From a virus (Duplodnaviria > Caudoviricetes): 27,102 bases of DNA. The translations under genes were made by a program, and so were the position numbers. The notes under the pieces were generated by a model. It saw only the letters and a program-made list of their open reading frames with translations. It was not told where the DNA came from and did not search any database. The stretch spans positions 1 through 27,102 of the IMG/VR virus record IMGVR_UViG_3300020411_003416; one strand, written 5' to 3'. Positions 4,330 through 27,102 of this stretch are shown piece by piece (position 1 is the stretch's first letter; the number at the start of each line of letters is the position of its first letter).

Positions 4330-5322
4330 ATGGCAATAGCACCAGTAAATAAGTTTATTAATATTGCCGTTCCTGTTGCACCAGGTGTGCAGAAACTTTA
4401 TGAAGTTCCAACAGGAACTTCTGCTTTATTATTGTATGCACAAGTATCTAATGTTGCTGCTGGAACAACTTATCCTACAACTACATTTTGGCAAAGAAGA
4501 ACTCAAAGAAGTACGGGTAGCGAAAGAGACGTAAGAATTATAAAGGAAGCAGAGATACCACCACAGGATGCATTAATAATGGTGGATGGTAGAATAGTAT
4601 TAGAAAAAACACCATTAGTAGTTGATAGTTTATACATTCGTGGAACCCAACAAGGTGTTGGTATTATTACTGATGTTCAATATGATGAACCATCAGGGAT
4701 TGCTACAGTTCAAACTCAGATAAAGCATGGATTTAATGTTGGTGATCAAATTAGTATGGGTGGAATGTATTTCACTTGTCCAAGTTATTCTGGTATAACA
4801 ACTAATATTTTCCCAGATCCTCAAAGATCTTATGTTGTAGATACGGTTGATGGTAATGTTGGAACTTCTAAGACATTTTCAATTGATATTGGTGGTGCTA
4901 GTGGAAATGAACACGTTTATAGTACAGCAATTCATAGATTTGTTAGAGCAGTTCCTCAGTGTATAGAGGTAGTTTCTAGTTCAAGTGTAGCAGTAGGAAC
5001 AAAGTTTAATGTAAGTACTGCAGATTACACTGGAAGTACAGGAGAAATAACTTTAAATATTGGAAATAATGGTTTATCAAATGGAGATACGATTAAGATA
5101 GCAGATAATTCTATAGTATTCACTTGCACGATGGATAATCATTATAGTGAACATTCTTATCCTAGAGCAACAGATCCAGCATCTAATACACCATTAACAC
5201 TTGCTATTGCTGTTGCAAATGAATCAATTCGGGTTCAAGTTGGTAAGTCAAGTGCTGGTGGATATGTTGCTCCACTAGAGATGGAACTAATAGCAAGTAT
5301 CCTAGAGAATAGTAATGTCTAA
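4330..5322 (+). CDS. Virion structural/adaptor protein (330 aa) with two internal beta-barrel-like repeats
   Basis: Long ORF starting 1 nt after the upstream stop. Two related segments: [33 protein letters not shown] and [34 protein letters not shown]. Confidence 0.7.
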
Positions 5323-7138
5323 GAGATACCTAAGTGGGCGGGTTAAACGATTACCGCAAGATCAATTAAAAGATGATAGATATAAGTATCTTGGTTTAGA
5401 TCAGGCAGAACCAAACCTTGCTGATCCAATTACAACACCTGCAGTTCCTTCTGGTCAACAGTATCAGTTGGTTGCTATTCCTGGTTTTGAAGGTAAGAGA
5501 TATTGGGTTCCTGTTGGTGGTGGATTAATTCCAGGTGCTATTAGTGTATATGATGAAGGAGTTCTTGTTAGTGCTGCAAGTAGTATTACCCAACTTAATT
5601 TTGTTGGAGCAGCAGTAACAGCACAAGTAGATGTTCAAAATCCTTCAGGGCATCCAGGTATTGCTGCAACAGTTACAGTTGTACCTGTTACAATTGGTTC
5701 TGATCCTCCAGTTAATCCTATTCATGGAGAATTATGGTGGGAAGATGATATTGGAGACTTATGTATTTACTATAATGATGGTGATACTAGTCAATGGGTT
5801 ACTGTAGTTGCTAGTGGAAATGGTGGAGGTCCCACAGGTCCTGCTGGTCCTCCAGGTCCAACTGGATTAACTGGTCCTTCTGGTCCTCCAGGTCCTGCAT
5901 CTACAGTACCAGGACCTCCTGGTCCTACAGGTGATGATGGTCCTCCTGGTCCTTCAGGTCCTCCTGGTGCTGATGGTAATGATGGTGCTCCAGGTCCTAG
6001 TGGTGGTCCTGGTCCAGATGGTCCTGCTGGTCCTCCAGGTAATGATGGTCCTCCAGGACCTCCAGGTCCAAGTGGTGGTCCTCCAGGTCCTGCTGGTCCT
6101 CCAGGTCCAAGTGGTCCTCCAGGTAATGACGGTGGATCTGGTACTCCAGGTCCTCCAGGTAATGATGGTCCTCCAGGTCCTCCAGGTCCAAGTAATGGTC
6201 CGACTGGTCCTGCTGGTCCTCCAGGTCCTCCAGGTAATGACGGTGGATCTGGTACTCCAGGTTCTCCAGGTCCAAGTGGTCCTCCAGGACCTCCAGGTCC
6301 AAGTGGTGGTCCTCCAGGTCCTGCTGGTCCTCCAGGTCCTCCAGGTGCTGACGGTGATGATTCAACAACACCAGGACCTCCAGGTCCTCCAGGTGCTGAT
6401 GGTTCTGATGGTGGTAGTGGTCCTCCAGGTCCATCTGGTCCTCCAGGTTCAGGTGGTAGTCCTGGTCCTTCTGGTCCTCCAGGTCCTCCAGGACCTCCAG
6501 GTTCAGGTGGAACAGCAAATACCGATCCAGCATTTGACATATACGTAAGAAATACTCAAACAACTCCATCAACTATATCAGTTACTTTTGATACTACTGA
6601 TTATGATAGTTGGTTAGTTATCGTTACCTCTGGAGGAGGTGGCGGTGGCGGTGGTTCTTCCAGTGGAAACTCTGGTGGAGGAGGAGGCGGTGGCGGTACA
6701 GCCATTCGTAGATATTCTGCTGCAGAAATGGGTAATGGTCAGTGTACTTTATTTGTTGGTCAAGGTGGGTCTGCTGGATCTGGTGGAGGTAATGGATCTG
6801 CTGGTCAGTATTCTCAGTTCTATCCAAACTCAAGTCAGTATGCTATAACTGCTTATCCTGGTCAAGGTGGTAGTGGTGGTAATAACGGTGCTCTTGTTGC
6901 TGGTGGTGGAGGAGGAGTTGGATATGGTGATATAAATTCCTTTGGTGGTGAAGGTACTCCTGGTGCTGGTGGAGAAACTGGTAGAGGTGGAGAAACTTAT
7001 TGGGGTGGTGGTCACAACTGGACTCCTGGTGGAGGTGGAAGAGGAGTTCAGGGTGGTGGTAATCCTATAGGAATAAATGATGGAAGACCAGGACAGATTG
7101 TAGTTTTTTCATATAAGAAGAGTAAGTTTACCGTTTAA
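5315..7138 (+). CDS. Collagen-like tail fibre A (607 aa) with glycine-rich C-terminal tip domain
   Basis: N-terminal anchor, a PPx[18 protein letters not shown] motif (5702-5800), ~75 G-X-Y triplets (~5825-6510), then a polyglycine domain ([15 protein letters not shown]...[11 protein letters not shown]). Confidence 0.85.
6046..6339 (+). repeat. Perfect direct repeats inside the collagen A coding region
   Basis: 63-bp exact copies at 6046-6108 and 6277-6339; 39-bp exact copies at 6113-6151 and 6224-6262, on a background of GGT-CCT-CCA triplet repeats. Confidence 0.85.
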
Positions 7139-7140
7139 TT

Positions 7141-7671
7141 ATGAGTTTTCTAGACGATTTTAAAAAAACAGATCTTCAACATCAAGCTGATGCTGATACT
7201 GTTCAAACTAATATAAGAGCTGGTATTGGAACCACTTACATAGATTTTGCTATAGTTGACAATTCTACTAGTTTAGTAGCAACTACTATAGTGGGTTATG
7301 CAGATACATCCAAGAATCCAACTTGTACTGAAATGGGTTTTACTGAACATCATTTCGTTGCTATTGGTGCTACTTATCGTGGTGAATTTGCTGGTATTCC
7401 AAATCGGTGCTTAGTAAGACCTGATTGGAAATATACTGATGCTGGTGGATTTTTTGATCCAGTTGATTATACAGAAGCATGGACAAAGGGTATGAGAGAA
7501 ACTAGAGATAAAAGATTAGCAGAATCTGATTGGACTCAATCGGCAACAGATAGCACATTATCTTCTAGTAAGAAGACTGAGTGGGCTACTTATAGACAGG
7601 CACTAAGAGACTTACCTGCTAATACTACAGATATTGCTAATCCTCCTTGGCCGACAAAACCATCAACTTAA
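7141..7671 (+). CDS. Tail fibre assembly chaperone (Phage_tail_APC-like C-terminal domain), 176 aa
   Basis: C-terminal RETRDKRLAESDWTQ...WATYRQALRDLP...WPTKP signature; lies directly after a fibre gene. Confidence 0.85.
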   Translation: MSFLDDFKKTDLQHQADADTVQTNIRAGIGTTYIDFAIVDNSTSLVATTIVGYADTSKNPTCTEMGFTEHHFVAIGATYRGEFAGIPNRCLVRPDWKYTDAGGFFDPVDYTEAWTKGMRETRDKRLAESDWTQSATDSTLSSSKKTEWATYRQALRDLPANTTDIANPPWPTKPST

Positions 7672-7672
7672 A

Positions 7673-7679
7673 ATAAATA
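7673..7679 (+). promoter_or_regulatory. T4-type late promoter (ATAAATA)
   Basis: Intergenic, followed by AGAGG and the ATG at 7700. Confidence 0.7.
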
Positions 7680-7699
7680 AAGAGGTATAATAATACAGT

Positions 7700-9241
7700 A
7701 TGCCAAGAATTGATTTTCCAGCTAATCCTAATGTAGGTCAAGATTATTCCTACAATAACTCCATTTGGAGATGGGATGGTTATGTCTGGAGAAGAATTCC
7801 TGATCCAGGTGCTCCAGGTCAAACAGGTCCTGCTGGTGCTCCAGGTTTAACAGGTCCTGCAGGTCCAAATGGTCCTCCAGGTCCAGTTGGTCCTCCAGGT
7901 CCTGCTGGTGGTCCTCCAGGTCCTCCAGGTGACGATGGTGCAGATGGTTCTCCTGGTCCTCAAGGTCCTCCAGGTATTGGTGGTCCAACTGGTCCAACTG
8001 GTCCTGCTGGTTCTCCAGGTCCTCCAGGTCCTGTAGGTCCTTCAAATCCAGGTCCCACAGGTCCTGAAGGTCCGACTGGTCCAACTGGTCCTACAGGTCC
8101 TCCAGGTCCTACTGGTCCAGGTAATACAGGAACTATTGATAGTGTAAAGCAATATAGAACTCCTGGTGTAGAGAGAAGTTGTGAAAGCCCGATCTTTGTA
8201 GTTAATAATAATACAATAGGTATTGGATCGACAAGTAACGCTTACGGAAATAGATTTGCTCAGAACGATGATCCTACTACTTCTGCTGGTGGTAGTTGGA
8301 ATGTATGTGATGGGGATTTATGGTATGATATGGACTCTGGTGCTGGTGGTGGACCTGGTCCTGCTGGTCCTCCAGGTCCATCTGGTCCAGCAGGTCCTCC
8401 AGGTCCAGCAGGTCCTCCAGGTTCAGGTGGTGGTGCGAATGTAGAAACATCTGATGTTCCACCAAGTAATCCTAGTGATGGTGATCTTTGGTGGGATTCT
8501 GTTAATGGACGATTAAATGTATATTACCAAGATGCTGATAGTTCACAGTGGGTTAGTTCTAATGGAGTAGGAATTGGTTCAACAGGTCCAGCAGGTCCTC
8601 CTGGTCCGACTGGTCCTGCTGGTCCTCCAGGAACTGGTAGCATATCAGATAAAATAGAAGAGGGTAATAGTAAAGTAGAAGTTATTGATACTGGAGTTGG
8701 TTTAGGTACTGTTTTTGTTAATACAGAGGGTACTGATCGTTGGGAATTTACCCATCAAGGTCATCTTCTTCCAATAGCACATGAAACTTATGATATAGGT
8801 TCAGCAGATCAAAAAGTTAGACATTTATTCTTATCAGATAATAGTATAAAATTTGTTAAGAGTAATGGTACAATTAATTCATTAGGAATATACACAGGTA
8901 CTGATCAATTAACTTGGACTGGATCATATGGTTTTATGAATTTAAGTGGGCATATTATTCCCACTGATAATGCACAGTATGATCTAGGTAATGCAGAATA
9001 TAAGATTAGACATTTATTCTTATCAGATAATAGTTTAAAATTTGTAGGTGCTGATGATGTTGTACGTGCAGTTGGTATTACCAATGGTAATTTAACCTAT
9101 ATGGGTAATCAATTATTAACAGTTCAACTTGATAGTCCTCAATCTGGGCATATTTTAGAGTATAATGGAACAGTATGGGCAAACAAGGCTAATACTGCAA
9201 GTTCTGCTTCATTTCAAAGTAATTGGCATATCCCTCTCTAA
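7700..9241 (+). CDS. Collagen-like tail fibre B (513 aa)
   Basis: N-terminal FPANP...WRWDGYVW motif, three collagen segments, a truncated GDLWYD motif, a full [16 protein letters not shown] motif, two GH..P....YD.G....RHLFLSDNS repeats, and C-terminal WHIPL. Confidence 0.85.
8817..9034 (+). repeat. Internal tandem domain duplication in fibre B
   Basis: 29-bp exact repeat TTAGACATTTATTCTTATCAGATAATAGT at 8817-8845 and 9006-9034 (189 nt = 63 aa apart), encoding RHLFLSDNS twice. Confidence 0.9.
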
Positions 9242-9251
9242 ATAGTAAATA
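9238..9251 (+). promoter_or_regulatory. Late promoter(s): CTAAATA overlapping the fibre B stop, plus GTAAATA
   Basis: TAAATA cores at 9239-9244 and 9246-9251, upstream of the ATG at 9266. Confidence 0.6.
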
Positions 9252-9265
9252 GGTAATTTAAAATT

Positions 9266-9661
9266 ATGGCAGCAACAGTATATACAGGATCTGGAGATTG
9301 GAGTTACACCAATAGTACTGGTGGGAATGTTCGTGTGATTGTCGCATATTGCTGGAATAATCAAACGAACTATACTAATGATGAAGGAATAACACAAATT
9401 GTCAATGGAATTACGATTGGTCAGGCTACTAGTGGAACTAATCAGTATTTTAGAGGTTTTGGTAAGCATATAACTTATTATGATTATATAACAGGTTCTT
9501 CAGGTACTTCTTTGCAGATGAAAAATATTTCTGGTAATGTAAATGGAACTTTTGCAGATGAATTTTTTCTTGCCAATGGGCAAACTGCTGCACTTCAGTC
9601 TACTGATGGTGGTAAACCAATAAAGGCATATAATATTATGGTTATACCAGAGGGTAATTAA
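9266..9661 (+). CDS. Small beta-rich protein (131 aa), putative tip/receptor-binding partner of fibre B; paralog of 12186..12611
   Basis: Shares ATVYxG, YxNxTGxNVRxxxxY, GK, F..E..L..G and YN...I.E motifs with 12186..12611. Confidence 0.7.
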   Translation: MAATVYTGSGDWSYTNSTGGNVRVIVAYCWNNQTNYTNDEGITQIVNGITIGQATSGTNQYFRGFGKHITYYDYITGSSGTSLQMKNISGNVNGTFADEFFLANGQTAALQSTDGGKPIKAYNIMVIPEGN

Positions 9662-11607
9662 TGGCAGTAAATTTTCCAAATAGTCCTTCAACTAACGATA
9701 CCCATACCGAGAACGGTTATACATGGAAGTGGGATGGAACTTCTTGGATTATTCAATCTCTTGCTCCTCCAGGTCCGACTGGTCCAAGTGGTCCATCAGG
9801 TCCAAGTGGTCCTGCTGGTCCGCCAGGTCCGCCAGGTCCAACTGGTCCTCCTGCTACGGTAAGTAGTGATCCTATAGGATCAATCATAGCATGGTCTGGA
9901 TCTACATCTAATATTCCAAGTGAGTATCAATTATGTGATGGTTCTACACCAGTTACGACTGAATTACAACTGATTACTGGGGGTGTTGTTCCTGATTTAC
10001 GAGGTAGATGGATTGTTGGAACAGATGGTAGTTTTCCCAATAAAACTTTTGGTAATCAATTTTCAAGTGGATCTGCTACACCTCCATATTATTCCTTATT
10101 TTACATAATCAAACATACTGCTTCTGCAGGTCCTCCAGGTCCAGCAGGTCCTCCAGGTTCTGGGTCTTCTACTTTTGTAGGTTTAACAGATACACCATCT
10201 ACCTTTACTGCTGATAAGTTTGTAAAAGTAAATTCTAGTGGTAATGCTTTAGAATGGACTGATGCTCCTACTAATGGATTACCTATAGTTAATGTTGCAG
10301 ATTTTGGAGCACTTCCAGGTGCTGCTGGTGCAACAAACAGGACTAGTATTGAAAATGCTATTAACTCATTAGCATCTACAGGAGGATTGGTTTATATTCC
10401 TACAGGAACTTATGATATAACAGGAACTATAGAATTAAATAATGGAACTCTGGGTGATGGTGGCGGTATAAGTATCATCGGTCCTACTCAGAACTATAGA
10501 GTTACTTCTGCTGATACTGAAGGAGTTTGTTTGAGATCTACTGATGCTGTTAGTGATATAATCAAAGTAAATAACGTAAGAAATGTAACTTTTGCCAACT
10601 TAGCATTTGATCATAAAGAAGGTACACCTAGAAATGGTGGAAATGCTGTTCATTTTTATTCTAATACAAATACTCAACAGATTAGAATGGATAGGATTTA
10701 TATCCGAAACCAATTTGGTGGTATTAAAGTAGATGGACATTCAATCGCAACATTTAGAGATATAGAAATTAGAGATTTTCCACTTCAAGCTGGAGCTTAT
10801 GGAATGTTATTTTCTGCTTCTGCTGGTGGATCGGAAAGAGTTGATCAGGTAAGATGTGAAAATATTATTATTGATGGTTTAGTTGATGGAGGTCCACATC
10901 CAACTGCAAATGGATTATGGGTTAAGGATTTTGTAAATTCAATATGGTTCCTTAATTGTGCTGTTATTAGATGTAATAAAGGATTTTTAATGGACTCAGC
11001 TGTTCCTAGTGGAGCAACAGGTAATCCTGGTTCATTCTTTAGAATAAATGACTGTGATTTTGATACAAATGGTACATATGGTATTGAGATTGCTGGTGGT
11101 AGTTTTATATGGATTAATAACCCATATATAAGTAGTAATTTCGTTAATGGTTTGAGAGTTAGTAGTACTTTCACAGGCGTATTAAGAGTACATGGTGCAG
11201 ATTGTAGAGGTAATAGGCAGCACGGAATTTATATTGATTCACAAGATCATAAGAAGATCTTTATAAGAGATTCACAGTGTGCTAATAATTCTGCAACTAA
11301 TGATAATCAATATGATGGTCTTGCTTTTTATGATTCTAATGGAACTAATCAATCAGATATTCATATTGATGGTGGACAGTATGGTGGAGATATAATGGGA
11401 TCAACTAATGGCGGTACTAATGGTAGTGTACCTCAAAGATATGGTATATCAGCAGTTAATAATACAAAATTTGATAGAATTACTATTAATAATGTAGATT
11501 GTACTGGAAATAGAACGGGTACAGTTCAATTTAACCCTAATAATGGGTCTGATAATTATATTCATAATGTTATCGGATTCCACGGAACACACTCAGGTGC
11601 TCACTAA
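9661..11607 (+). CDS. Collagen-linked tailspike C (648 aa): tail-collar domain plus pectate-lyase-like beta-helix
   Basis: N-terminal FPNSP...WKWDGTSW motif, short collagen, collar motif ([42 protein letters not shown], 9868-10113), then VNVADFGA...IENAIN...[11 protein letters not shown] and right-handed beta-helix repeats (10285-11604). Confidence 0.85.
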
Positions 11608-12161
11608 TGGCAGTTAAGATACGAAAAGGTGGTCAATGGGTAACTATAGTAGGTAATGGACCTCCAGGTCCAGCAGGTCCCACAGGTCCAACTGGTCCTG
11701 CTGGTGCAGACGGTGCTGATGGTGCTGATGGTGGAACAGGTCCAACAGGTCCTGCTGGTCCAACTGGTCCCACAGGTCCGACTGGTCCGACAGGTCCTTC
11801 AGGTGGAGCTGGTGGAACTGGTCCTGCTGGTCCGCCAGGTCCTGCTGGAAATGATGGTGCTGATGGAAGTAATGGACCTCCTGGTGCAACTGGTCCTACA
11901 GGTCCTACAGGTCCTGCTGGTCCGCCAGGTCCAACTGGTCCTTCTGGTCCCCAAGGTGTTGCTGGTCTAGATATTGGAACTTCACCTCCATCTGGTCCTT
12001 CTACTGCTGGTGATTTATGGTGGGAATCGGATACAGGTCATCTATATGTTTATTATAATGATGGTAATAGTAATCAGTGGGTAGCAGTCTCACAAGGTCC
12101 TGCTGGATCGCCTGGTGGAGGTGGTCTATTTACAACACCAAAATGGAATATACCAGTCTAA
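11607..12161 (+). CDS. Short collagen-like fibre D (184 aa)
   Basis: 15-aa N-terminus [15 protein letters not shown], ~34 G-X-Y triplets, a [16 protein letters not shown] motif and C-terminal WNIPV; TAATG-coupled to the upstream gene. Confidence 0.85.
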
Positions 12162-12164
12162 ATA
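12158..12164 (+). promoter_or_regulatory. Late promoter CTAAATA overlapping the fibre D stop
   Basis: Same position relative to the stop codon as at 9238; followed by AGGAG and the ATG at 12186. Confidence 0.65.
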
Positions 12165-12185
12165 CTAAACAGGAGATATAAAATC

Positions 12186-12611
12186 ATGACAGCAACAGTT
12201 TATAATGGAGTATTACAGGGAACTGGAGCAACTCACATTCAGACTCTTTATAATAACAATACTGGTAAAAATGTAAGAATAGTATGGAATTATATTCAGG
12301 CAGGAAATAGTAATCCTAATGAAGTTGAGGTGATTGTAGGTCCAATAACTACACTTCCTGGTCATAGTAGTGGAAATAACCTTGATACAATCTTATTAAG
12401 ACTTCCTTCTGGTTTTGCAGCTGGTAAAAATTTGGGAATTTTTAGGAATGATACTAATACAGCACATAGAGGATCTGGTGGTACTCCAGGTAGTTTTCCA
12501 ACGGAAATGATGTTGTCTGATGGAGATAAAATTAGTATACGAATTCCTTCACAAATAGGCAGTTACGTGAATGGTCTTCATTATAATTTTGTAGCGATAA
12601 CGGAAGATTAA
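12186..12611 (+). CDS. Small beta-rich protein (141 aa), putative tip partner of fibre D; paralog of 9266..9661
   Basis: MTATVYNG...[15 protein letters not shown]...GKNL...[10 protein letters not shown]...YNFVAITED; good AGGAG RBS. Confidence 0.7.
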
Positions 12612-12615
12612 TAAT

Positions 12616-14379
12616 ATGGCAGCATTCGATTTTCCAAACAGTCCATCCCTTAATGATACCCATACAGAAAATGGGGTAATTTGGAAGTGGAATGGATATG
12701 CTTGGGATCGAGTTCCAAGTAGTGGTCCTCAAGGTGCTCCAGGTCCAACTGGACCAAGTGGTCCTGCAGGTCCTCCAGGTCCAACAGGTGGTTCTGGTCC
12801 TCCTGGTCCAGGTGGCACAGGTCCTGCTGGTCCTCCAGGTCCACCAGGTCCTACTGGAAATGATGGTGCTGACGGTGCTGATGGAGGAAGTGGTCCTCCA
12901 GGTCCTGCTGGTCCTCCAGGTCCTACAGGAAATGATGGTGCTGATGGAAATGATGGTAGTACAGGTCCAACTGGTCCTACAGGTCCAACTGGTCCATCTG
13001 GTCCTCAAGGTAATCCAGGTCCACCAGGTCAGTCTGGAGCAAGAAATTATACTATAACAAATAGTGGATCTGGTTCGTATTGTGTTGATGGCACTTGTAG
13101 TAATCCAACAATAAGTTTAATAAGAGGATTTACTTATACCTTTAGTGTAAATGCAAATGGGCATCCGTTTTGGATTAAAACATCTCAAACTACTGGAACA
13201 GGTAATCAATATAATACAGGAGTAACAGGTAATGGTACTCAAGTAGGAACTATAACTTGGACTGTTGCATCTAATGCACCAAGTACTCTTTATTATATTT
13301 GTGAATATCATAGTGCTATGACAGGCACTTTTTCTATATCAGATTTTGGTCCTGTTGGTCCTCCAGGTCCAACTGGTCCTGCAGGTCCTCCAGGTCCAAC
13401 AGGTGGTTCTGGTCCTCCTGGTCCCACAGGTCCTGCTGGTGCTGACGGTGATGATGGAGGAAGTGGTCCTCCAGGTCCTCCAGGTCCAACAGGTGGAGAT
13501 GGTCCTCCTGGTCCAGGTGGCACAGGTCCTGCTGGTCCTCCAGGTACTCCAGGTAATGATGGAAATGATGGAAATGACGGTGCTGATGGTGGACCTGGTC
13601 CTGCTGGTCCTCCAGGTATTCCAGGAAATGATGGTGCTGATGGTGCTGATGGTGGTCCAGGTCCTGCAGGTCCTGCAGGTCCTCCAGGTTCAAGTGGTCC
13701 TGCTGGTGTTCCTTCTGGAGCTGTTATGTTATTTGCACAAGCTAGTGCTCCTACTGGATGGACAAAATCAACATCACATAATAATAAAGCACTTAGAGTT
13801 GTAAGTGGTTCTGGTGGTGGTTCTGGTGGTAGTAATTCATTTACTAGTTCATTCTCCAACCAATCTTTAAGTGTTAGCGGATCTGGAAGTGCTAGTGGAA
13901 CTACAGGAAGTAGTGTTTCTGGATCTACAAGTAGTGAAAATGCTGGATCTGTTAGTGTTAGTGGATCTGTTAGTGGTAATTGTGGTGGTGGACAATACAT
14001 TTACGCTAGTACCAGTCAGGTAACATTAGCAACTAGTCAGATACCATCTCACCAACACGCTTATGATGTTCCTCGTGGTAGTAGTGGTTCTGGATATGGT
14101 TTCCGAGATACTATGAATGGTACTTCTTCTGGAACCGCATCAGTTGCTGCTGCTGGTGGAGGTGGTGCTCACAATCACTCATTAGTTAATTATCTAATAT
14201 CTGGTTCTAACTTTAGTTTCAGTGATAGTTTTACTGCTTCTGGTTCCCCTAGTAATCACAGTCACGATATAGGCAATCACTCTCATAGTTTTAGTGATAG
14301 TAGTATTAGTGTTAGTAGTTCTGGTTCTCTTGACTTGCGTGTTCAGTATGTTGATGTTATAATAGCATCAAAGGATTGA
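12616..14379 (+). CDS. Collagen-like tail fibre E (587 aa) with internal cupredoxin-like domain and HxH needle tip
   Basis: N-terminal FPNSP...WKWNGYAW motif, collagen, a GHPF...[10 protein letters not shown] domain (13045-13347), more collagen, collar-like [20 protein letters not shown], and four HxH motifs (14050, 14170, 14257, 14278). Confidence 0.85.
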
Positions 14380-14383
14380 TTTA

Positions 14384-14710
14384 ATGAAACTTGAACGTGG
14401 CAATTATTGTCCTTTAATTAAGAAGGATTGTATAGGATTACAGTGTACTTGGTTTACTCAAATACGTGGTATGAATCCCAATACAGGAGAAGAAACTGAT
14501 GAGTGGGGATGTGCAGTTGGTTGGATGCCTATGTTAATGGTTGAAAATTCTCAAATGCAAAGACAAACTAGTGCTGCTATTGAATCCTTTAGAAATGAAT
14601 CTGTAAAGTCAACTTTACAAGCACAAGAGATATATAAGGCAGAATTGAAACTTAAAGCATTAGATAGATTACAAGAACCTAGAAAAACCTTAAATGTAAC
14701 AGAAGAATGA
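14384..14710 (+). CDS. Cys-rich phage protein (108 aa), probable tail-fibre-associated factor
   Basis: CPLx4Cx4C...WGCA motif followed by a helical C-terminus; sits between a fibre gene and a chaperone gene with an ATGA overlap. Confidence 0.7.
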   Translation: MKLERGNYCPLIKKDCIGLQCTWFTQIRGMNPNTGEETDEWGCAVGWMPMLMVENSQMQRQTSAAIESFRNESVKSTLQAQEIYKAELKLKALDRLQEPRKTLNVTEE

Positions 14711-15213
14711 AATTAACAGTTGTTCCATCTGATAAAACAATAATTATTGATACTGAAGGGGTAGTATGTAGTAATGTTGATCTTTCTTGGATTCCTACAG
14801 ATGTTCATGCGATGCATTGGGACAGTTCAACAAATAAAGGTCACGTTGAATATGAAGATGATGCTGTAGATGGAGATGGAAATAAAAAATGGGGTGATGA
14901 AATTACTGCAATAGGTATTTGGCAGCAAGCAGTAACAGATCACGCTAATGAAAAAACTGCTCAAGCAAATGCAATAGAAGCAGCAAGAGATCATTTAGCA
15001 GAAGTAAAACAATATAGAAATGCTTTATTATCTTGGTCTGATTGGACTCAAGGTAATGATTCCCCATTAAGTTCTAGTAAGAAAACTGAGTGGGCAACAT
15101 ATCGTCAGGCATTAAGAGATCTTCCAGCAACTATAGCAGCAGATTCTAATTTAACTGCAAAGGCGATGGCAGATGACTTTACGCATTCTAGTTGGCCGAC
15201 AAAACCCACATAG
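14707..15213 (+). CDS. Tail fibre assembly chaperone (Phage_tail_APC-like C-terminal domain), 168 aa
   Basis: RNALLSWSDWTQ..LSSSKKTEWATYRQALRDLPA..WPTKPT, nearly identical to the C-terminus of 7141..7671; the N-terminal domain is different. Confidence 0.85.
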   Translation: MKLTVVPSDKTIIIDTEGVVCSNVDLSWIPTDVHAMHWDSSTNKGHVEYEDDAVDGDGNKKWGDEITAIGIWQQAVTDHANEKTAQANAIEAARDHLAEVKQYRNALLSWSDWTQGNDSPLSSSKKTEWATYRQALRDLPATIAADSNLTAKAMADDFTHSSWPTKPT

Positions 15214-15224
15214 TATGCTATAAT
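15196..15224 (+). promoter_or_regulatory. Putative sigma70-type (early) promoter for the oxygenase gene
   Basis: CCGACA (15196-15201, 4/6 to TTGACA), 17-nt spacer, perfect TATAAT (15219-15224), with extended -10 TG at 15216-15217. Confidence 0.6.
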
Positions 15225-15247
15225 AATTAAACTAGATGGATAACTAG

Positions 15248-15841
15248 ATGAATGATCTGATACAAGTAATTAAGATTCTTAATGGTGCTGATCTTAAAAA
15301 AGTAAATCAATATGTTGATACTTTAGAATTTAAAGATAATACTGTGTTTGGCAAACCTGGTGAGGAATGTCAAACTAATACTGATATTAGATCTAGTACT
15401 GGGGTATCTTTAGATGATGCACATGAAATAACTAATGTTATTCATAATGCTATGAATAATGGATTGGATGAATATAAGAGAAGAGTACAAAAGATTCATC
15501 CTAATTTTAGTTATTATCCTGTACCTGGTGCTGTAGGAACTAGATCTTGGAGAGAAGGAATACAAATATTAGATTATAAAAAAGGACAAGAATATAAGTT
15601 TCATCACGATGCAGCAACAGAACCTAGATTAGGTGAGTATCATAGAAAGATTTCTGTTATATTATATTTAAAGGAAGCAACTAAAGGTGGTGGAACTGCA
15701 TTTGCACATCTATCAGTCAAACCAAAACCTGGTTATGCTCTTATATTTCCATCTAATTGGTGTTATCCTCACGCAGGTGAACCAGTAAGTGCAGGTAAAA
15801 AACGAGTCGCTGTTACATGGTATTACGTTGAGAATATATAG
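15248..15841 (+). CDS. 2OG-Fe(II) oxygenase, prolyl 4-hydroxylase-like (197 aa)
   Basis: DIRSS, EGIQILDY..GQEYKFHHD (HxD at 15602-15610), RKISVILYL...GGGTAF, KPKPG.ALIFP and H-AGEPVSAG-K-K-RVAVT-W (distal His 15770, Lys at +10, Trp at +16). Confidence 0.9.
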   Translation: MNDLIQVIKILNGADLKKVNQYVDTLEFKDNTVFGKPGEECQTNTDIRSSTGVSLDDAHEITNVIHNAMNNGLDEYKRRVQKIHPNFSYYPVPGAVGTRSWREGIQILDYKKGQEYKFHHDAATEPRLGEYHRKISVILYLKEATKGGGTAFAHLSVKPKPGYALIFPSNWCYPHAGEPVSAGKKRVAVTWYYVENI

Positions 15842-15857
15842 ATATTATGCGATACAT

Positions 15858-16070
15858 ATGATTATGAATGATGAAACTGTTCAAGATATCATAATTGATG
15901 TCTGCAAAAGAAGAATTACTTTAATTAGTAATGAAGGTGAAACTAGATTTGTTAAGTGTGATAACACAGATCAGTTTATGGGTGTAATGGATGTTATTAA
16001 GGAACATGCTGATCCTGAAATCATTACTTATGTTCAACCAAAATTAACTACAGATAGCAAAGCTAAATAG
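15858..16070 (+). CDS. Small hypothetical phage protein (~68-70 aa)
   Basis: More plausible start at ATG 15858 or 15864 (no overlap with the oxygenase) than the track start at 15789; MNDETVQDIIIDVCKRRITLISNEGETRFVKCDNTDQFMGV... Confidence 0.65.
   Translation: MIMNDETVQDIIIDVCKRRITLISNEGETRFVKCDNTDQFMGVMDVIKEHADPEIITYVQPKLTTDSKAK
16063..16069 (+). promoter_or_regulatory. Late promoter CTAAATA for the 1897-aa fibre gene
   Basis: TAAATA core overlapping the upstream stop, ~40 nt before the ATG at 16108. Confidence 0.65.
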
Positions 16071-16107: not shown

Positions 16108-19100
16108 ATGCCACTTAATAAATTAGAGAATTTTATAAAGAATAGTGAGGGTCGCATTCTTTATGTTAATCCAAATGATCTTGATGCCACCGATGGAATA
16201 GAAAATCAGGGTAATTCATTAACAAAACCATTTAAGACCTTACAAAGAGCACTTATCGAATCCGCTAGATTTTCATATCTAAGGGGAAATGATAATGATT
16301 TAGTGGAGAAGACAACAATATTACTTTTTCCAGGTGAACATTTAATAGATAACCGTCCAGGTTTTGGTATAAAGGATGTTAATGGAACTGCTACTGCTAT
16401 TAGTCCAAGTAGTGCAGAGTCTGGTGCTCAGAATACTCTTACATTAACTCTTAACTCTAACTTCGATTTAACACAAGAAGATAATATACTTTATAAGTTT
16501 AATAGTACAGAAGGTGGTGTTATAGTTCCTAGAGGAACATCTATTGTTGGATTAGACTTAAGAAAAACAAAGGTTCGTCCTAAGTATGTTCCAAACCCAA
16601 CAGATGATAATGTAAAATCTGCTGCTATCTTTAGGGTTACTGGTGCTTGTTATTTCTGGCAGTTCTCTATATTTGATGGGGATGAGTCTACATTAGTATA
16701 TACAGATCCTACTAACTTTGATACTACAAATAGATCTAAACCAGTATTTTCTCACCATAAATTAACAGTATTTGAATATGCTGATGGTGTTAATAAATTA
16801 GATAAGTTTGGTGGATTAACTGATCTAGATGTTTATTATAGTAAGTTATCCAACGCATATAATAGGGCATCAATCAGAGATATTGATGAGAAGTTTCCTA
16901 GTAATTCAGGTGGATTTGCAAAGCAAAGACCTGAATTTGAAATTGTAGGTGCTTTCTCTGCTGACCGTATTCAGATCTCAAATATTATTTCAGGTGATGG
17001 TGCAACACCAGGTCAGGTTGTTACTGTAACAACAGCAGTTCCACATGAATTAACTGGTGGTACACCAATTAAGATTGAGGGTGTTAATGAAGTAACATAT
17101 AATATTTCAACTAAAGTTAATAGTGTTTTGAATGAAACTCAATTCACATATCTATTATCTTATGTTCCACCTAATCTTAGGGCAGGTCCTGCTGGTGGAT
17201 TAAGTGCTGGTAGTGCGGAAGTTAGTGTAGAAGTTGATACTGTTACTGGTGCATCTCCTTATATCTTTAACTGTTCTTTGAGATCAGTTCTTGGTATGTG
17301 TGGTATGAAAGCTGATGGTGCAAAGGCAACTGGATTTAGATCTATGGTTGTTGCTCAGTTTACTGGTGTATCACTACAGAAAGATGATCGTGCATTTGTA
17401 AAATATAATAAAAATAGTAGAAAATATGATGGTATTACATATCAAAAACAAACTGGTGAGTTACTATCATCCGAAGCATCAAATCCTAATCCAGCAAATG
17501 TTTATCACTTAGATAAAGATGCTGTTTATAGAGATGGTTGGAAGACTGCACATATTACATTAGAAAATGATGCTGTTCTACAGATCGTTTCTGTGTTCGC
17601 TATTGGTTATCATATTCATTTCTTAATGAAGTCTGGTGGTGACGCATCAATTACAAACTCTAACTCTAACTTCGGTCAGTTTGCTCTTGCTGCTGATGGA
17701 TTTAAGAAAGAATCTTTTGATAAAGATAATAAAGGATTTATTACATCTGTTATTGCACCAAAAGCAGTTGTTAGTGAAGAATCTAATATTGAGTTAAATC
17801 AACTTGATACTTCTGTTAACCAAGCATATAAAGCTGCTGATACTTCAACTAATAATATTAATAGTAGAAGTAAGTTATTCTTATTAGGACAAACTAATGA
17901 GAACTTAGTACCATCTGAAATTGCACAGGGATTTAGAATTGGTGCAAGAGTTGGTGAGAAGTTTTATATAGATTTAGCAAATGGAACTAAAGTTCAAGCT
18001 ACCATTTGTATGTCTAATAAGGAAATTGTTGGTGGTAATGCTTCAACTGTGACTTCAACAGTTAGAGTTACTTCAGAAAAAGAATATGAAGGAACTCATA
18101 ATAATACTACTCAAGGAAGTGCATCTATTCAGCATGAAATAGAACTCAATAATTTACGTGCTGTTGGTGCTAAACATGATCTTAATAATGGTGAATCTAT
18201 TAGAGTTATTGCAGAGAGTGGTGATTTACCAGAAGGTTTAGATCCACATAAAATTTATTATGCAATTACTAATGAAAAGAATAGTTCAAGACAAGATGGC
18301 ATCAGTTTAGATGATTACACAATTCAGATTGCATCATCAAAAACTAACGCTGATAGAACTACACCACAATATATTAAAACTATTTACAGTCCTGATGCAG
18401 GTAAATTAAAAATTATTAGTAGAGTTTCGGATAAGAAACCAGGTGAATTAGGACATCCAATGCAGTGGGATGCTGCTGAGAGTAATTGGTTTATTCATGT
18501 TGATGGCACTAATCAAAGTTCTGAATCAACTTATAATAGTATATGGGATAACTTTGCTAATTTAGATCCTGATGATGAGGATATTCCTTATCTTCAAAGA
18601 CAAAATGATAGTAGAAGTTTAGATGATAAACTCTATAAGTTTAGATATGTAATTCCAAAAGAATTAGAAAATGCTAGAGATCCTAACGATAGTTTTATCA
18701 TTCAAGATTCTAGTTCTACTAATATAAGAGCAACGGCAGATTTTACTAGAACTTCTATTGGATCTACTGATTATGATTATAATAGGAATTTGAGATTCAT
18801 TTCTTATCTTGATTATAACAGTACTACTAAGATAGTCACTATTAGAGCAGATAAGTCTCACAATCTAAATGCTGGTGAACAGATTATCCTTAAGAATATA
18901 ACATGTAATGTTAATCCTAATGGAGCAGCAGGTAAAGGATATAATGGAACATTCTTAGTTAACAGTGTTATTAGTGATAAAGTCTTTACTTATAAAACAA
19001 CTGACATTTTAGGTAATGTTCATAATGTAGGAACTTATAATAATGACACTCATACTAGGAATATGGCATTACCTAGATTTGAGAGAAATAATAACCAAGA

Positions 19101-21801
19101 GAATCTATTCATTTATAGAACAGAAACAATTTTACCTTATGTTGAAGGAGCACAAGATGGTGTTTATCATCTATACGTTCTGAATGGTAATAATGTTATA
19201 CCAGAAGAATTTGCTAATGGTAAGTATAATCAGAATGTTGTTAATCTTTATCCAGAATTGGATCGAGATAATGTAAATGATAACCCACAACAGGCAAATA
19301 GTTATGCTAAGAGATTCCCTATTGGTGATGTAGTTACTAATGATCTTAAGAAGAGTATTACTAGAGAAACTGCTAATAATTTTATTAATAGTTTTGGTGT
19401 TGCGAATACAGTTAGTGATGTAACTGATAATGGTACTTCTGCTGTTCTAACACTTACAAAAGAACATGATCTTGGTGGTTTGAAGTATGGTGGAACATTA
19501 TCAGGTGGAGGAAGTCATACTGATGGAACTTACTATAATGTAAAATTATTTGATGATGCTTCTGCTCCTGCTTCTGCTGTATGGAAAGGTGCTACTGCTA
19601 AAGTTGTTGTTAGTGGTGGAGCAGTTACCGAATATGAGATAACTGAACCAGGATCAGCATATAAGAGTTCACTATCTCCATTATATTTTGATTCTTCATT
19701 AGTATCTCAAGGTGGTATTGGTGGAGCTCCTAGTGCTAATATTGCTATTACTAATGATAACATTAGTTTGGCAACTGATAGTTATGTTCAAGTAACTGGT
19801 ATTAGTACAGGAACTGACAATTATTTCAGGGTTAATGATGCTACGGATATTAATAAAATCAATATTAATAAGACTGCAAGTGAAACAATTCTGAACGGTC
19901 AGACTGTTGTTAGTGTAGGACCTACTGTTGAAGTTAATACTTCTAGTGGAACCGATACAACTACATTTAATTGTACTGCTGCACACGGATTATTAAAAGG
20001 AAATCGTTTTAGAGTATTAAATGCTTCTGATGCTAATCTTGGAGACTTTATTGTTACTGAAGTTGTGGATGTAGATAGTTTTACTGCTGCAACTCCAGGT
20101 GGATTAACATCTCCTAAGTATATTCTTAAGCATGGATTATCTGCTAATGATGGTAATTCTGGTAAACAGGGTGAAAGTTTGGGGGTAAGAGGAGTTAGTT
20201 TCTATGATAATGAATCTCTAGTTTTGAATGAAACAATTACTTCAGTTACGGATGAAATTAAAGTTACTCTACCTGGTGGAGGAACAACTGTTGCATCTAT
20301 TCAGGCAAGATTCCCATTAGGTTCATTTATTCAGATTGATAATGAAATAATGAGAGTTGTTGATAAAACTATTGGTACTGGAACTAAACTTAAAGTTATT
20401 CGTGGTGCATTAGGTACTATTGTTGATAATCATGTTATTAATTCTCAGATTAAGAAGATTAAACCACTTCCTGTTGAATTAAGAAGACCTTCTATACTTC
20501 GTGCATCTGGTCATACGTTTGAATACCTTGGTTATGGTCCAGGTAACTACTCAACTGGTTTACCTCAAGTTCAACTTAAATCTCTAACTGAGAGAGAAGA
20601 GTTCTTATCACAATCACAAGAAACATCTTGTGGTACTGTTGTTTACACAGGTATGAATGATAAGGGTGACTTCTATATTGGAAACACTAAGATTTCATCT
20701 GACTCTGGTGAACAGGTAACATTTGATATTCCAATTCCAACTGTAACGGGTGAAGATCCAAGTACACTTAGTGTTGTATTTGATGAGGTAATCATTAAAG
20801 ATAGATTACTTGTTGAGGGTGGAAGTTCTAATACAATTCTATCTCAGTTTAATGGACCTGTAACATTCAACGGTAATGTAAGATTCAACAAGGATCTTAA
20901 AGTTGCAACTAACTTAACTGTTGATGGTATAGTTAAATTTAATAATGAAACGGTAGCATCATCTGCTTGTGGTGTAACTCCTACAGGATCATTAGTTGTT
21001 AAAGGTGGAGTTTCTATTGGTGATAAGGTAACTGGTGCTGGTGCAGTATCCTTAAATGTACTAGATGGTATTGTTAGAATTTGTGAAAATGCTGCATCAA
21101 CCAGTTCTACTACAGGTGCTTTAATAATTGGTGGTGGTGTTGGTATTGCTGGCGATCTGAATGTTGGTGCTAAAGCATCTTTCGGTCAAAATGTAACATT
21201 TAGTGGTGGATTGCATTTACCAAGTGGTGTTCAGATAACTTTTGGTGGACCAGATGCTACTGATCCACTAGGAACTATTCAGCATGATGCTCCAGGTGAT
21301 AATTTTAGACTTACCGCAAGGGGTGATACTACTGATGTTTACTTACAAAGTAATTCAAGAGTTATTATTGGTGATAAAGAGAATACTGAGCAAGGTTTCG
21401 TTTACAATAAGGGTGCTAGCTCAGCAGTATATTATGGTGGATTAAAGAAACTTGAAACTCTTAATACTGGTGTTAAGGTTACTGGTGACTTAGATGTTAC
21501 TGGTGATATTACTGCATACTCAACTTCTGATGCAAGATTGAAGAATGATGTTAAACCAATACAAGATTCTCTTGCTAAGGTTAAATCAATTTCAGGTAAT
21601 ACCTTTACTTGGAATGAAGCATCTAAGAAAGAGGGACAGGAAGATACTGGTGTGATCGCACAAGAAATTTCTGCTATCGGATTACCTGGCACAGTAACTA
21701 TCAGAGAAGATGGAACCTATGCTGTTGATTATGAGAAGTTAGTTCCACTTCTACTAGAAGCAATCAAGGAATTATCTAATAAGGTTGATACTTTATCATA
21801 A
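16108..21801 (+). CDS. Large tail fibre/structural protein (1897 aa) with C-terminal intramolecular chaperone (peptidase S74)
   Basis: N-terminal ILYVNPNDLDATD..GNSLTKPFKTLQRA beta-helix-type head, several TxxxHxLxxG beta-barrel inserts, STTGALIIGGGVGI fibre repeats, and S74 signature SDARLK..GVIAQE..VDYEKLVPLLLEAIKEL (from 21526). Confidence 0.9.
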   Translation: MPLNKLENFIKNSEGRILYVNPNDLDATDGIENQGNSLTKPFKTLQRALIESARFSYLRGNDNDLVEKTTILLFPGEHLIDNRPGFGIKDVNGTATAISPSSAESGAQNTLTLTLNSNFDLTQEDNILYKFNSTEGGVIVPRGTSIVGLDLRKTKVRPKYVPNPTDDNVKSAAIFRVTGACYFWQFSIFDGDESTLVYTDPTNFDTTNRSKPVFSHHKLTVFEYADGVNKLDKFGGLTDLDVYYSKLSNAYNRASIRDIDEKFPSNSGGFAKQRPEFEIVGAFSADRIQISNIISGDGATPGQVVTVTTAVPHELTGGTPIKIEGVNEVTYNISTKVNSVLNETQFTYLLSYVPPNLRAGPAGGLSAGSAEVSVEVDTVTGASPYIFNCSLRSVLGMCGMKADGAKATGFRSMVVAQFTGVSLQKDDRAFVKYNKNSRKYDGITYQKQTGELLSSEASNPNPANVYHLDKDAVYRDGWKTAHITLENDAVLQIVSVFAIGYHIHFLMKSGGDASITNSNSNFGQFALAADGFKKESFDKDNKGFITSVIAPKAVVSEESNIELNQLDTSVNQAYKAADTSTNNINSRSKLFLLGQTNENLVPSEIAQGFRIGARVGEKFYIDLANGTKVQATICMSNKEIVGGNASTVTSTVRVTSEKEYEGTHNNTTQGSASIQHEIELNNLRAVGAKHDLNNGESIRVIAESGDLPEGLDPHKIYYAITNEKNSSRQDGISLDDYTIQIASSKTNADRTTPQYIKTIYSPDAGKLKIISRVSDKKPGELGHPMQWDAAESNWFIHVDGTNQSSESTYNSIWDNFANLDPDDEDIPYLQRQNDSRSLDDKLYKFRYVIPKELENARDPNDSFIIQDSSSTNIRATADFTRTSIGSTDYDYNRNLRFISYLDYNSTTKIVTIRADKSHNLNAGEQIILKNITCNVNPNGAAGKGYNGTFLVNSVISDKVFTYKTTDILGNVHNVGTYNNDTHTRNMALPRFERNNNQENLFIYRTETILPYVEGAQDGVYHLYVLNGNNVIPEEFANGKYNQNVVNLYPELDRDNVNDNPQQANSYAKRFPIGDVVTNDLKKSITRETANNFINSFGVANTVSDVTDNGTSAVLTLTKEHDLGGLKYGGTLSGGGSHTDGTYYNVKLFDDASAPASAVWKGATAKVVVSGGAVTEYEITEPGSAYKSSLSPLYFDSSLVSQGGIGGAPSANIAITNDNISLATDSYVQVTGISTGTDNYFRVNDATDINKININKTASETILNGQTVVSVGPTVEVNTSSGTDTTTFNCTAAHGLLKGNRFRVLNASDANLGDFIVTEVVDVDSFTAATPGGLTSPKYILKHGLSANDGNSGKQGESLGVRGVSFYDNESLVLNETITSVTDEIKVTLPGGGTTVASIQARFPLGSFIQIDNEIMRVVDKTIGTGTKLKVIRGALGTIVDNHVINSQIKKIKPLPVELRRPSILRASGHTFEYLGYGPGNYSTGLPQVQLKSLTEREEFLSQSQETSCGTVVYTGMNDKGDFYIGNTKISSDSGEQVTFDIPIPTVTGEDPSTLSVVFDEVIIKDRLLVEGGSSNTILSQFNGPVTFNGNVRFNKDLKVATNLTVDGIVKFNNETVASSACGVTPTGSLVVKGGVSIGDKVTGAGAVSLNVLDGIVRICENAASTSSTTGALIIGGGVGIAGDLNVGAKASFGQNVTFSGGLHLPSGVQITFGGPDATDPLGTIQHDAPGDNFRLTARGDTTDVYLQSNSRVIIGDKENTEQGFVYNKGASSAVYYGGLKKLETLNTGVKVTGDLDVTGDITAYSTSDARLKNDVKPIQDSLAKVKSISGNTFTWNEASKKEGQEDTGVIAQEISAIGLPGTVTIREDGTYAVDYEKLVPLLLEAIKELSNKVDTLS

Positions 21802-23845: not shown

Positions 23846-23855
23846 GGAATAATTA

Positions 23856-26800: not shown

Positions 26801-27102
26801 AGGAACTTTTGAATATTATTGGGGTGGTGTTAAAGTAGGAACACTTAATATTGAAGGTGCTAGTGTTACTTACATAGAATCTGAGGATGGAAATTACAGA
26901 TATGATTCTCACACCCAAGTTGGTGGAACAGGTTCAAATTTCTATACAATATCAAGGATAAAGCGTAGTCCTCAAATAAACTGGAAGGAAAACCCTGCTG
27001 GTGTTGCATTTGAGATCTATACTTATGATAATGATGGAAATAAGGTAGTTGCAGTTGATTCTAGTCCTCTTGGTTCTGAAGGTACTGTATGGGGTGCTGC
27101 CC
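23856..27102 (+). CDS. 3'-truncated large adhesin (>1082 aa) with T-even gp38-like glycine-rich core; absent from the ORF track
   Basis: Manually translated: ATG at 23856 (MGISVTKAGPYFGSGEIKFSQLRSNF...) stays open in frame 3 to the window end. LHVSGGIYGAGGKGG...GKDGGPALSI...GGKIYGGGGGG matches the gp38 polyglycine pattern. C-terminal part has YRLRAQSDNDCIFYID...NPAGVAFEI (PA14/lectin-like). Confidence 0.85.
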   Translation, partial: MGISVTKAGPYFGSGEIKFSQLRSNFKETGSGPVSASELFRNTNPYDREPITPDSTENDQIASDPFPVSVTWSTTYGPAYVSGQNYVEAMPYSTDYPRGSFDYYFGGVKVGTLDLETASNTYIELGDIRYDSHTQQPAEWTVIDPMSHISGQNYVEATTPIAGQFPAGTFEYYWDGVLQGVLNIQGATVDYVEVTNQYGSFRFRGGTLQADGTYSIERSKLTQNFYSISKIERTIGTGGSGPFRYSGVGKNLKASQFRNSIKRYTATQSGNDQFLDMGLYTASGGKGIDWDGQGVQDAAGSVTGNYQRNVQKIINITGICYSDDEGTNGAVGGGGRGHTKKPAAKLVMPNPLKALNTRLHVSGGIYGAGGKGGYFGPTHAPQDESDPGKDGGPALSISHEGIESITYIHVEGGKIYGGGGGGEQGIQGEWPVAAGICDLGGYTSCSGGNTVCTTSGGYTAGYDEGCHGSGTGGSCAPGEISASLHIATLPCPDGSGYGTISAVFCYRQTCVTTERTCTYTSYGSYTSTLPIQGRGGAGGNGAAGVPGSPNYQAQSSGSAGTQDIDAQCNSGGTLGGAKNSSPGGTGEDGGQHGSPGGSNAGKSPAASGLAQGEGGGKGGAAVCGQYFKTPLLGNTGSNNVRGTIGNQCDGTNSPPIIVPNAPTVTMGDVNYIRFNYPDADGTQTQTLNVTGTVSAKFAHMWNDKNDYGRGMDGIKIYKPDGSVLWSSVFNVDFSDPGSGIPKTYYSPQLTITEGIYPVEFINLHPRNQAGTDSNGRPYLKADHLLEIGQKMFFVDGHEGDRNQEVYILPNGTDTLWQKSYITGTHGSASAANNWAGDTSSEYVGMNQYWSAFMRRLAYWENNSDPKTQGGAEPGFFQAWSFNPPITRGVNEYRLRAQSDNDCIFYIDQMFKIGETSKYDSSGSSELDIPINYAFANGTNASVRVQCFNRQPLNISWNTINEPGYVANQNYVLFTTATQQYPRGTFEYYWGGVKVGTLNIEGASVTYIESEDGNYRYDSHTQVGGTGSNFYTISRIKRSPQINWKENPAGVAFEIYTYDNDGNKVVAVDSSPLGSEGTVWGAA
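24069..26966 (+). repeat. Three dispersed copies of an ~80-aa domain in the adhesin gene
   Basis: W...(G/N)QNYV...P.G(S/T)F(D/E)YY(F/W).GV..G.L......Y(I/V)E...Y(S/T)I at 24069-24554, 24273-24515 (nested in the first) and 26721-26966. Copies 1 and 3 share DNA blocks such as GGTGGTGTTAAAGTAGG and TACTTACATAGAA. Confidence 0.85.

Follow-up and report, generated by a model that had tools for sequence, protein, structure and literature searches.

A cyanophage tail-fibre island that encodes collagen-like proteins and a probable prolyl 4-hydroxylase acting on them

We have analysed a viral record of 27,102 bases (IMG/VR record IMGVR_UViG_3300020411_003416), the whole of which we call the window, in which five genes for collagen-like predicted fibre proteins are followed by a gene for a 2-oxoglutarate (2OG)-Fe(II) oxygenase of 197 amino acids. 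Sequence and model comparisons make it likely that the oxygenase is a prolyl 4-hydroxylase (P4H) that converts prolines in the GPPG motifs of the phage's own predicted fibres to hydroxyproline (Hyp). The window covers the baseplate and tail-fibre genes of a P-SSM2-like cyanomyovirus (a T4-like cyanophage): its gene order is that of PSSM2_020-035 of Prochlorococcus phage P-SSM2, a likeness from which we infer the host. PSSM2_023-031 constitute the same island, and PSSM2_031, which shares 97% identity with the oxygenase, differs in being annotated as piuC/ferrochelatase. The collagen-like repeats of P-SSM2 orf23 and orf28 were described as tail-fibre-like, and the word oxygenase is absent from that paper (Sullivan et al. 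2005; PMC1079782). Because P-SSM2 is a cultured relative, fibre hydroxylation is directly testable on its virions.

The five collagen-like genes reported in an earlier note on this DNA, here called fibres A to E, were recovered on the + strand between positions 5315 and 14379 (Table 1). Counting G-X-Y runs of at least three triplets, we found 248 triplets, of which the commonest were GPP (62), GPT (35), GPA (31) and GPS (19). Proline occupies the X position in 64.5% of triplets and the Y position in 33.5%. Also borne out were the claims that the tracts contain Asp (14.5% of Y positions) and hardly any basic residues (one Arg, no Lys), and that about 28 of some 75 triplets in fibre A are GPP (26 of 73 by our count). 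The asserted dominance of GPP holds for the set as a whole and not for fibre D, in which GPT outnumbers GPP by 10 to 4, and fibre C has only 13 triplets. Fibres A, B, D and E pass the Pfam Collagen (PF01391) cut-off; fibre C falls below it (20.6 versus 27.2 bits). The tracts are interrupted, with longest unbroken runs of 35 triplets in fibre D and 19 in fibre A. Since GPPG occurs 64 times in the five fibre genes and not once in ten other window genes that were checked, the repeats are not due to chance. A place in the virion is suggested, indirectly, by PHROG tail-fibre and collar matches, by two interleaved assembly chaperones and by TAAATA boxes. As to the assertion that the array is closed by the oxygenase, this gene does lie downstream, at 15248-15841, but two genes (for proteins of 108 and 168 amino acids) intervene after fibre E. 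Hyp at Y is known to stabilise the collagen triple helix. In collagens of Gram-positive bacteria, the Y position is often Thr (reviewed in PMC8968730).

The P4H motif set claimed for the oxygenase is present as described (D46-I-R-S-S, E103-G-I-Q-I-L-D-Y110, H119-H-D121 and H175...K185...W191). Its best sequence matches among solved structures were Bacillus P4H (E 6e-11 with a single sequence, 8e-16 with a profile), vCPH, Chlamydomonas P4H-1 and human collagen P4H-II. An AlphaFold model based on a 60-row alignment had a predicted local distance difference test (pLDDT) score of 88.5, and with this model Foldseek ranked the algal P4H-peptide complex (3gze) and vCPH (5c5t) at the top. The nearest solved fold is that of a peptidyl P4H. 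We then located in the phage protein, from spacing and an HMMER alignment rather than by superposition, the residues listed for P4H-TM: Y319, T375 and K451 for 2OG, R273, E312, Y325, R358 and W457 for the peptide site, and Trp279 (PMC7948501). In this way 11 of the 12 residues for catalysis, 2OG binding and the peptide site could be assigned phage equivalents. The iron ligands correspond to H119, D121 and H175 (the HxD...H triad is present in 80/80 homologues) and the 2OG ligands to Y110, T150 and K185 (kept in 53/53 distinct clade members). At the peptide site, the equivalents R48, E103, R133 and W191 are found in all 53 members of the clade and Y116 in 52.

The comparison with 64 other oxygenases of the same loci separates informative from uninformative residues. 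The earlier note had taken Lys as the 2OG ligand, and the H...K...W motif, as signs of a P4H. Lys185 and Trp191, however, are each kept in 60 of the 64, and the motif is common to most other cyanophage oxygenases; they are thus not diagnostic. R48, on the other hand, is kept in only 4 of the 64, E103 in 3, Y110 in 18 and Y116 in 13. Thus it is the peptide-site residues that, at the level of sequence, set the enzyme clade apart. The clade is nearly all viral (555 matches at E<=1e-10); in 185,579 prokaryote genomes it appeared at four loci, of which three lie on contigs that look like phage and the fourth is a Vulcanococcus gene adjoining sufS.

Other identities for the enzyme were considered and rejected. 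It scores 26.9 bits against a cut-off of 143 for the PiuC/PKHD-type Fe2+-dependent dioxygenases (NCBIfam NF003974). PHD2 binds 2OG through an arginine. The HIF-PHD, OGFOD1 or PPHD type, in which an Arg ligand for the 2OG C-5 carboxylate is expected (Arg230 in OGFOD1; PMC4396695), does not fit the presence of Lys185 in 80/80 homologues. The tetrameric architecture of the animal collagen P4Hs, with dimerisation and peptide-binding domains and a protein disulfide isomerase (PDI) subunit, is at odds with a single domain. No longer, fused form was seen among 7999 scored candidates, a weak check, and no enzyme-collagen fusion among the 150 best profile hits.

Two further kinds of oxygenase were observed in related islands. 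At L026:9352-9999, L042:1148-1792 and L043:5565-6263 the P4H-like enzyme is accompanied by a tandem paralogue that shares about 47% identity with it. A second type has Lys and Thr at the positions of R48 and E103 and keeps Y110 and Y116, possibly with a different peptide specificity; it occurs at L405:9283-9966, L093:1396-2049, L548:4037-4657 and L533:7680-8285, and several of its members adjoin Lys-rich collagens.

The association of the enzyme with its candidate substrate, which the earlier note had proposed to check across phages, was apparent at the level of the locus. Of 76 loci fetched with the enzyme as anchor, 42 had 5 kb of upstream sequence; 40 of these had at least two GPPG motifs, and all 42 had GPPG or a collagen run. 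As such sampling is circular, the tests were anchored instead on the N-terminus of the long fibre encoded downstream. Four scans of this kind gave 260 loci, 164 of them with 6 kb upstream or an island boundary. In the first scan, 12 loci had both enzyme and collagen, 1 had the enzyme only, 6 had collagen only (all poor in proline at Y) and 23 had neither. When loci were sorted into classes set beforehand and dereplicated at 97%, the enzyme was present in 12 of 13 loci with collagens rich in proline at Y, 9 of 33 with other collagens and 2 of 59 without collagen. Both enzyme-positive loci of the last class carry short repeated GPPGPP units, and the lone exception in the first class encodes a polyglycine protein. 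With a cut-off of at least two GPPG motifs, picked after the exceptions had been inspected, the enzyme was found in 24/24 loci above it and 6/140 of the others (18/18 versus 5/84 after dereplication, p 7e-16), and about six independent pairs on supported branches were in favour and none against (p ~0.03). A held-out set of 104 new loci was collected after the rule had been fixed; 42 were usable, and among the 34 that did not duplicate earlier loci the enzyme was present in 3/3 with at least two GPPG motifs and 1/31 without (p 7e-4).

Two further observations bear on specificity. Of 43 island families, each present in at least three loci, only the enzyme is represented at every one of the 18 GPPG loci (the runners-up in enrichment reach 3 of 18), and the proteins that carry the GPPG repeats have N-termini of at least three kinds. 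The pattern also extended to 38 whole records (19 cultured and 19 from IMG/VR, 13 of the latter less than 90% complete), among which eight were known beforehand to have the clade. Clustered GPPGP matches were present in 7 of these 8 and in none of the other 30, of which 26 had no match and four had one or two scattered matches. Pfam collagen matches were absent from 15 of 16 cultured genomes without the clade. Clade-negative S-CAM9 has a GPT/GQK collagen with a single proline at Y in 59 triplets. The adjacency of enzyme and collagens, which the earlier note had cautioned might be coincidental, is on this genomic evidence not a chance one. The proposal that the phage hydroxylates its own fibres thus gains comparative support from the tracking of GPPG by a clade that retains the P4H peptide-site residues. 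We also observed, in the C-terminal parts of fibres at L038, L063, L066, L068 and L075, repeat units three triplets long and 2-10 residues apart; though too short to form a classical triple helix, they lie next to the enzyme in every case.

Promoter-like sequences point to a difference in timing. Because the upstream sequences share kinship, the counts that follow are not independent. TAAATA, which matches the S-PM2 late promoter NATAAATA (PMC2984593), lies within 50 bases upstream of 32/32, 14/14 and 22/34 structural genes in three families and of 33/79 collagen genes, against a background of 2.6%. Enzyme genes instead have a -10 box of the sigma-70 type upstream: 22 of the 32 with an intergenic gap do, against 1 of the 24 without one (background, 6.4%). 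The enzyme would therefore be expressed earlier than the late fibre genes, in keeping with collagen chains being, as a rule, modified prior to trimerisation (PMC8968730).

We envisage that the enzyme, made from a host sigma-70-type promoter ahead of the late fibre genes, would be present while fibre chains are being translated. Unfolded chains would be bound in a groove formed by R48, E103, Y116, R133 and W191. Fe(II), 2OG and photosynthetic O2 would be used for a hydroxylation that, judging from the P4Hs of animals, algae and Bacillus, falls mainly on the Y-position proline and possibly on X. The resulting Hyp would stabilise triple helices that are short and interrupted and that contain Asp but lack the Lys needed for the charge pairs of other prokaryotic collagens.

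Related phages appear to use other collagens. At L419, L423, L451, L565 and L543 the same island holds very long Pro-free G-T-Q, G-L-Q or G-A-Q collagens (up to 380 triplets in one protein) and Lys-rich G-E-K/G-Q-K collagens; phages of the lineage with either kind mostly lack the P4H clade. Judged from their repeats, three alternative collagen chemistries would exist within one phage lineage. We regard as somewhat more probable than its converse the broader proposition that P-SSM2-like phages build animal-type Gly-Pro-Hyp virion fibres inside a cyanobacterium by means of a dedicated, stand-alone P4H switched on before its substrates, and that within this lineage GPP repeats and the enzyme come and go as a unit, one of three ways of stabilising collagen (through Hyp, Lys-Asp/Glu pairs or Gln/Thr-rich repeats).

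A number of results weigh against fibre hydroxylation or against the strength of the association. PHD2 (template-modelling score ~0.6) and EF-Tu hydroxylases closely trail the top Foldseek ranks. An aromatic equivalent of P4H-TM Trp279 (Phe in the Bacillus anthracis enzyme) is absent: the window has S54, and the position is variable across the clade. In view of this missing substrate-stacking aromatic we class the enzyme in a separate P4H-like clade rather than as a member of the collagen-type P4Hs. In the tests themselves, the choice of the GPPG cut-off after inspection must be counted, as must the facts that three of the four anchor queries besides that of the window came from enzyme-positive loci, that the test of the pre-set classes on independent pairs was not significant (4 to 0, p 0.125) and that the anchors of the three held-out positives share 85-94% identity with the window lineage. 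The enzyme occurs without GPPG at six discovery loci, five after dereplication; the members at three of the five are divergent (232-277 bits), some G-x-P-G is present at four, and at one no upstream sequence is visible. Conservation of the enzyme without collagens, which the earlier note had named as contrary evidence, was found at island level in one locus, L625, a complete island on a 5.6-kb contig; as P-SSM2 and S-CAM7 have collagens elsewhere in their genomes, that of L625 may have some outside the island. ACG-2014f has a clade member alongside a glycosyltransferase and a Thr-rich collagen with one GPPG. The Vulcanococcus bin (L572:1952-2563, 69% GC) has a 39% identical relative with the full residue set, convergent with sufS, and no collagen was seen on its contig. 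Among viruses at large, 44 of 46 loci with a GPP pattern of at least 15 triplets had no profile-detected oxygenase; GPP collagens can thus work unmodified, and hydroxylation is no physical necessity. Finally, a scan of 83 representatives, out of 413 clusters, showed the islands to be rich in other oxygenases and in carbamoyl-, sulfo-, methyl- and glycosyltransferases.

These results leave room for other roles. The enzyme might hydroxylate a prolyl residue of a host protein or of a phage protein other than a fibre and merely travel with the fibre island. EF-Tu is a substrate of the P4Hs of Bacillus and Pseudomonas, and P4H-EF-Tu structures (5v7y and 4iw3) were among the Foldseek matches; the gene is preceded by a sigma-70-type box of its own and by no late box; and L625, the Vulcanococcus bin and the overlapping-type loci L070/L071, in which a divergent member adjoins a head-completion gene, offer contexts of this kind. 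Yet hitchhiking predicts that neighbouring genes track GPPG equally, which none does, and GPPG recurs in different scaffolds. Moreover, 16 of the 19 cultured cyanomyovirus genomes tested, from phages of the same hosts, lack the clade. We consider this role quite unlikely. A role in metabolism or repair, such as a drain on 2OG that tunes NtcA, AlkB-like DNA repair or small-molecule synthesis, is highly improbable. Such roles have been published for the superfamily (PMC3037559; PMC2984593; PMC2938197), and most cyanomyoviruses encode several such oxygenases, but they would leave both the clade-specific peptide-site residues and the tracking of GPPG unexplained, and the enzyme is not PiuC (26.9 versus 143 bits).

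The fibres might, alternatively, be modified to a different end, with the hydroxyl group serving as a chemical handle or decoration (for glycosylation, carbamoylation or sulfation), or the product might not be 4-Hyp at Y but a modification of X, 3-Hyp or another residue altogether. In ACG-2014f and S-CAM7, glycosyltransferases lie directly 5' of the enzyme; carbamoyltransferases, sulfotransferases and other oxygenases populate related islands; and hydroxylation followed by sulfation was proposed for bacterial collagen-like proteins (Iyer et al. 2010; PMC2938197). Proline at X, furthermore, discriminates enzyme-positive from enzyme-negative loci as well as proline at Y does, and the Bacillus enzyme acts on both X and Y (PMC8968730). 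Against decoration, the islands of the window and of P-SSM2 contain no transferase, and the collagens that adjoin glycosyltransferases are Thr-rich, suggesting Thr as the sugar acceptor. Thr is the sugar acceptor in BclA. A different end or product is, on balance, unlikely, and we favour hydroxylation of the GPPG prolines of the fibres.

The enzyme has known counterparts. Like vCPH of chlorovirus PBCV-1 and Chlamydomonas P4H-1, it has a small single-domain P4H fold with the same metal, 2OG and most peptide-site residues. Like vCPH, it would be a virus-encoded enzyme with virus-encoded Pro-rich substrates, such as Eriksson is said to have reported for the chlorovirus P4H in 1999. It differs from both in being only about 20% identical to them, in lacking the aromatic six residues after the first Arg and in having Val189 where most P4Hs carry Thr; they act in eukaryotic cells, whereas its substrate would be G-P-P fibres in the cyanobacterial cytoplasm. 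Of the solved structures, the one closest to it in sequence is the Bacillus anthracis P4H (3itq, 5hv0), which is able to hydroxylate (PPG)n peptides at X as well as at Y (PMC8968730). The natural collagen substrate of that enzyme is not established, and EF-Tu is reported as a substrate (title of 5v7y); the phage clade, in contrast, co-occurs with a candidate substrate at the level of the motif. Mimivirus encodes collagens together with its own hydroxylation and glycosylation enzymes (PMC8968730), and so resembles the present system in encoding both partners. It is a giant virus of amoebae, however, whereas here we deal with a bacteriophage and with proline, and its lysyl hydroxylase (6ax6) matches at E 0.64 only.

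In bacteria, operons with beta-hydroxylase or PhyH oxygenases, sulfotransferases and collagen-like or tail-collar proteins led to the prediction of collagen-like substrates from gene neighbourhood (Iyer et al. 2010; PMC2938197), as here, although for other oxygenase families and cellular operons; the same paper assigned cyanophage oxygenase arrays to secondary metabolism. Cyanophage 2OG-Fe(II) oxygenases have been listed since 2010 as auxiliary metabolic genes without a substrate, and a modulation of 2OG has been proposed for them (Sullivan et al. 2010; PMC3037559). A 2022 Baltic survey mentions phage collagen beside P4H and terms viral use of P4H 'cryptic' (PMC9301287). In a literature search that did not extend to most subscription papers, we found none that connects the P4H of a bacteriophage with the collagens of that phage. 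The present analysis offers one oxygenase clade, one substrate motif and one cultured phage gene, PSSM2_031 of P-SSM2. If the proposal is true, Hyp collagen is formed in a bacterial cell on a natural substrate, an abundant 'metabolic' gene is reassigned to virion maturation, and a small cytoplasmic P4H becomes available for recombinant collagen.

Table 1. Predicted features of the fibre island and its right-hand flank in the window
Feature	Position	Strand	Description
Fibre A	5315..7138	+	607 amino acids (aa); PSSM2_023 counterpart
Fibre A collagen region	residues 172-401, interrupted		73 triplets, 26 GPP, 28 GPPG; C-terminal part glycine-rich
Tail-fibre assembly chaperone-like protein	7141..7671	+	Pfam Phage_tail_APC
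Fibre B	7700..9241	+	513 aa; 52 triplets, 12 GPPG; TAAATA late-promoter-like box at 7674
131-aa protein	9266..9661	+	no known family; clusters with 12186-12611; TAAATA at 9239, 9246
Fibre C	9661..11607	+	648 aa; 13 triplets only, 4 GPPG; pectate-lyase-like beta-helix domain; PHROG tail collar protein
Fibre D	11607..12161	+	184 aa; single unbroken 35-triplet run, GPT-dominated, 4 GPPG
141-aa protein	12186..12611	+	no known family; TAAATA at 12159
Fibre E	12616..14379	+	587 aa; 75 triplets, 16 GPPG; PSSM2_028 counterpart
108-aa protein	14384..14710	+	no known family; four conserved Cys; in 16/19 relatives a sigma-70-type -10 box lies upstream
Second tail-fibre assembly chaperone-like protein	14707..15213	+	Pfam Phage_tail_APC
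Extended -10 promoter-like site (TG-N-TATAAT)	15216..15224	+	in gap 5' of oxygenase
P4H-like 2OG-Fe(II) oxygenase	15248..15841	+	197 aa; Pfam 2OG-FeII_Oxy_3
DUF7294 protein	15858..16070	+	conserved right-hand neighbour of variable island
Long tail fibre	16108..21801	+	phrog_529, Peptidase_S74 chaperone domain; TAAATA at 16064

The four-Cys protein encoded after fibre E belongs to a family that is not specific to GPPG loci (present in 5 of 18); its gene usually lies directly 3' of a fibre gene and 5' of an assembly chaperone gene, and it may be a fibre-folding helper. Beyond the long tail fibre, positions 23850-27102 hold an open reading frame (ORF) of more than 1000 codons that continues past the window edge; it is the counterpart of PSSM2_035 and was absent from the default ORF call. 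In P-SSM2 itself an additional GPP collagen ORF lies far from the island, at about 220.6 kb (L592:4609 onward), and could be a substrate in trans.

Finally, we note candidate modification genes beside collagens of other composition. Glycosyltransferase genes adjoin Thr-rich (GAT/GST) collagens at L078:16917-18008, L079:16114-17993 and L590:724-1461, in ACG-2014f and S-CAM7, and are candidates for fibre glycosylation; S-CAM7 also has a second collagen cluster with a glucosyltransferase near 168-182 kb. In S-CAM9 (L589:3399-12258) a GPT/GQK collagen fibre is followed by two other oxygenases and by a protein whose start may resemble a family-25 glycosyltransferase, which together make a candidate set for lysine hydroxylation and glycosylation.

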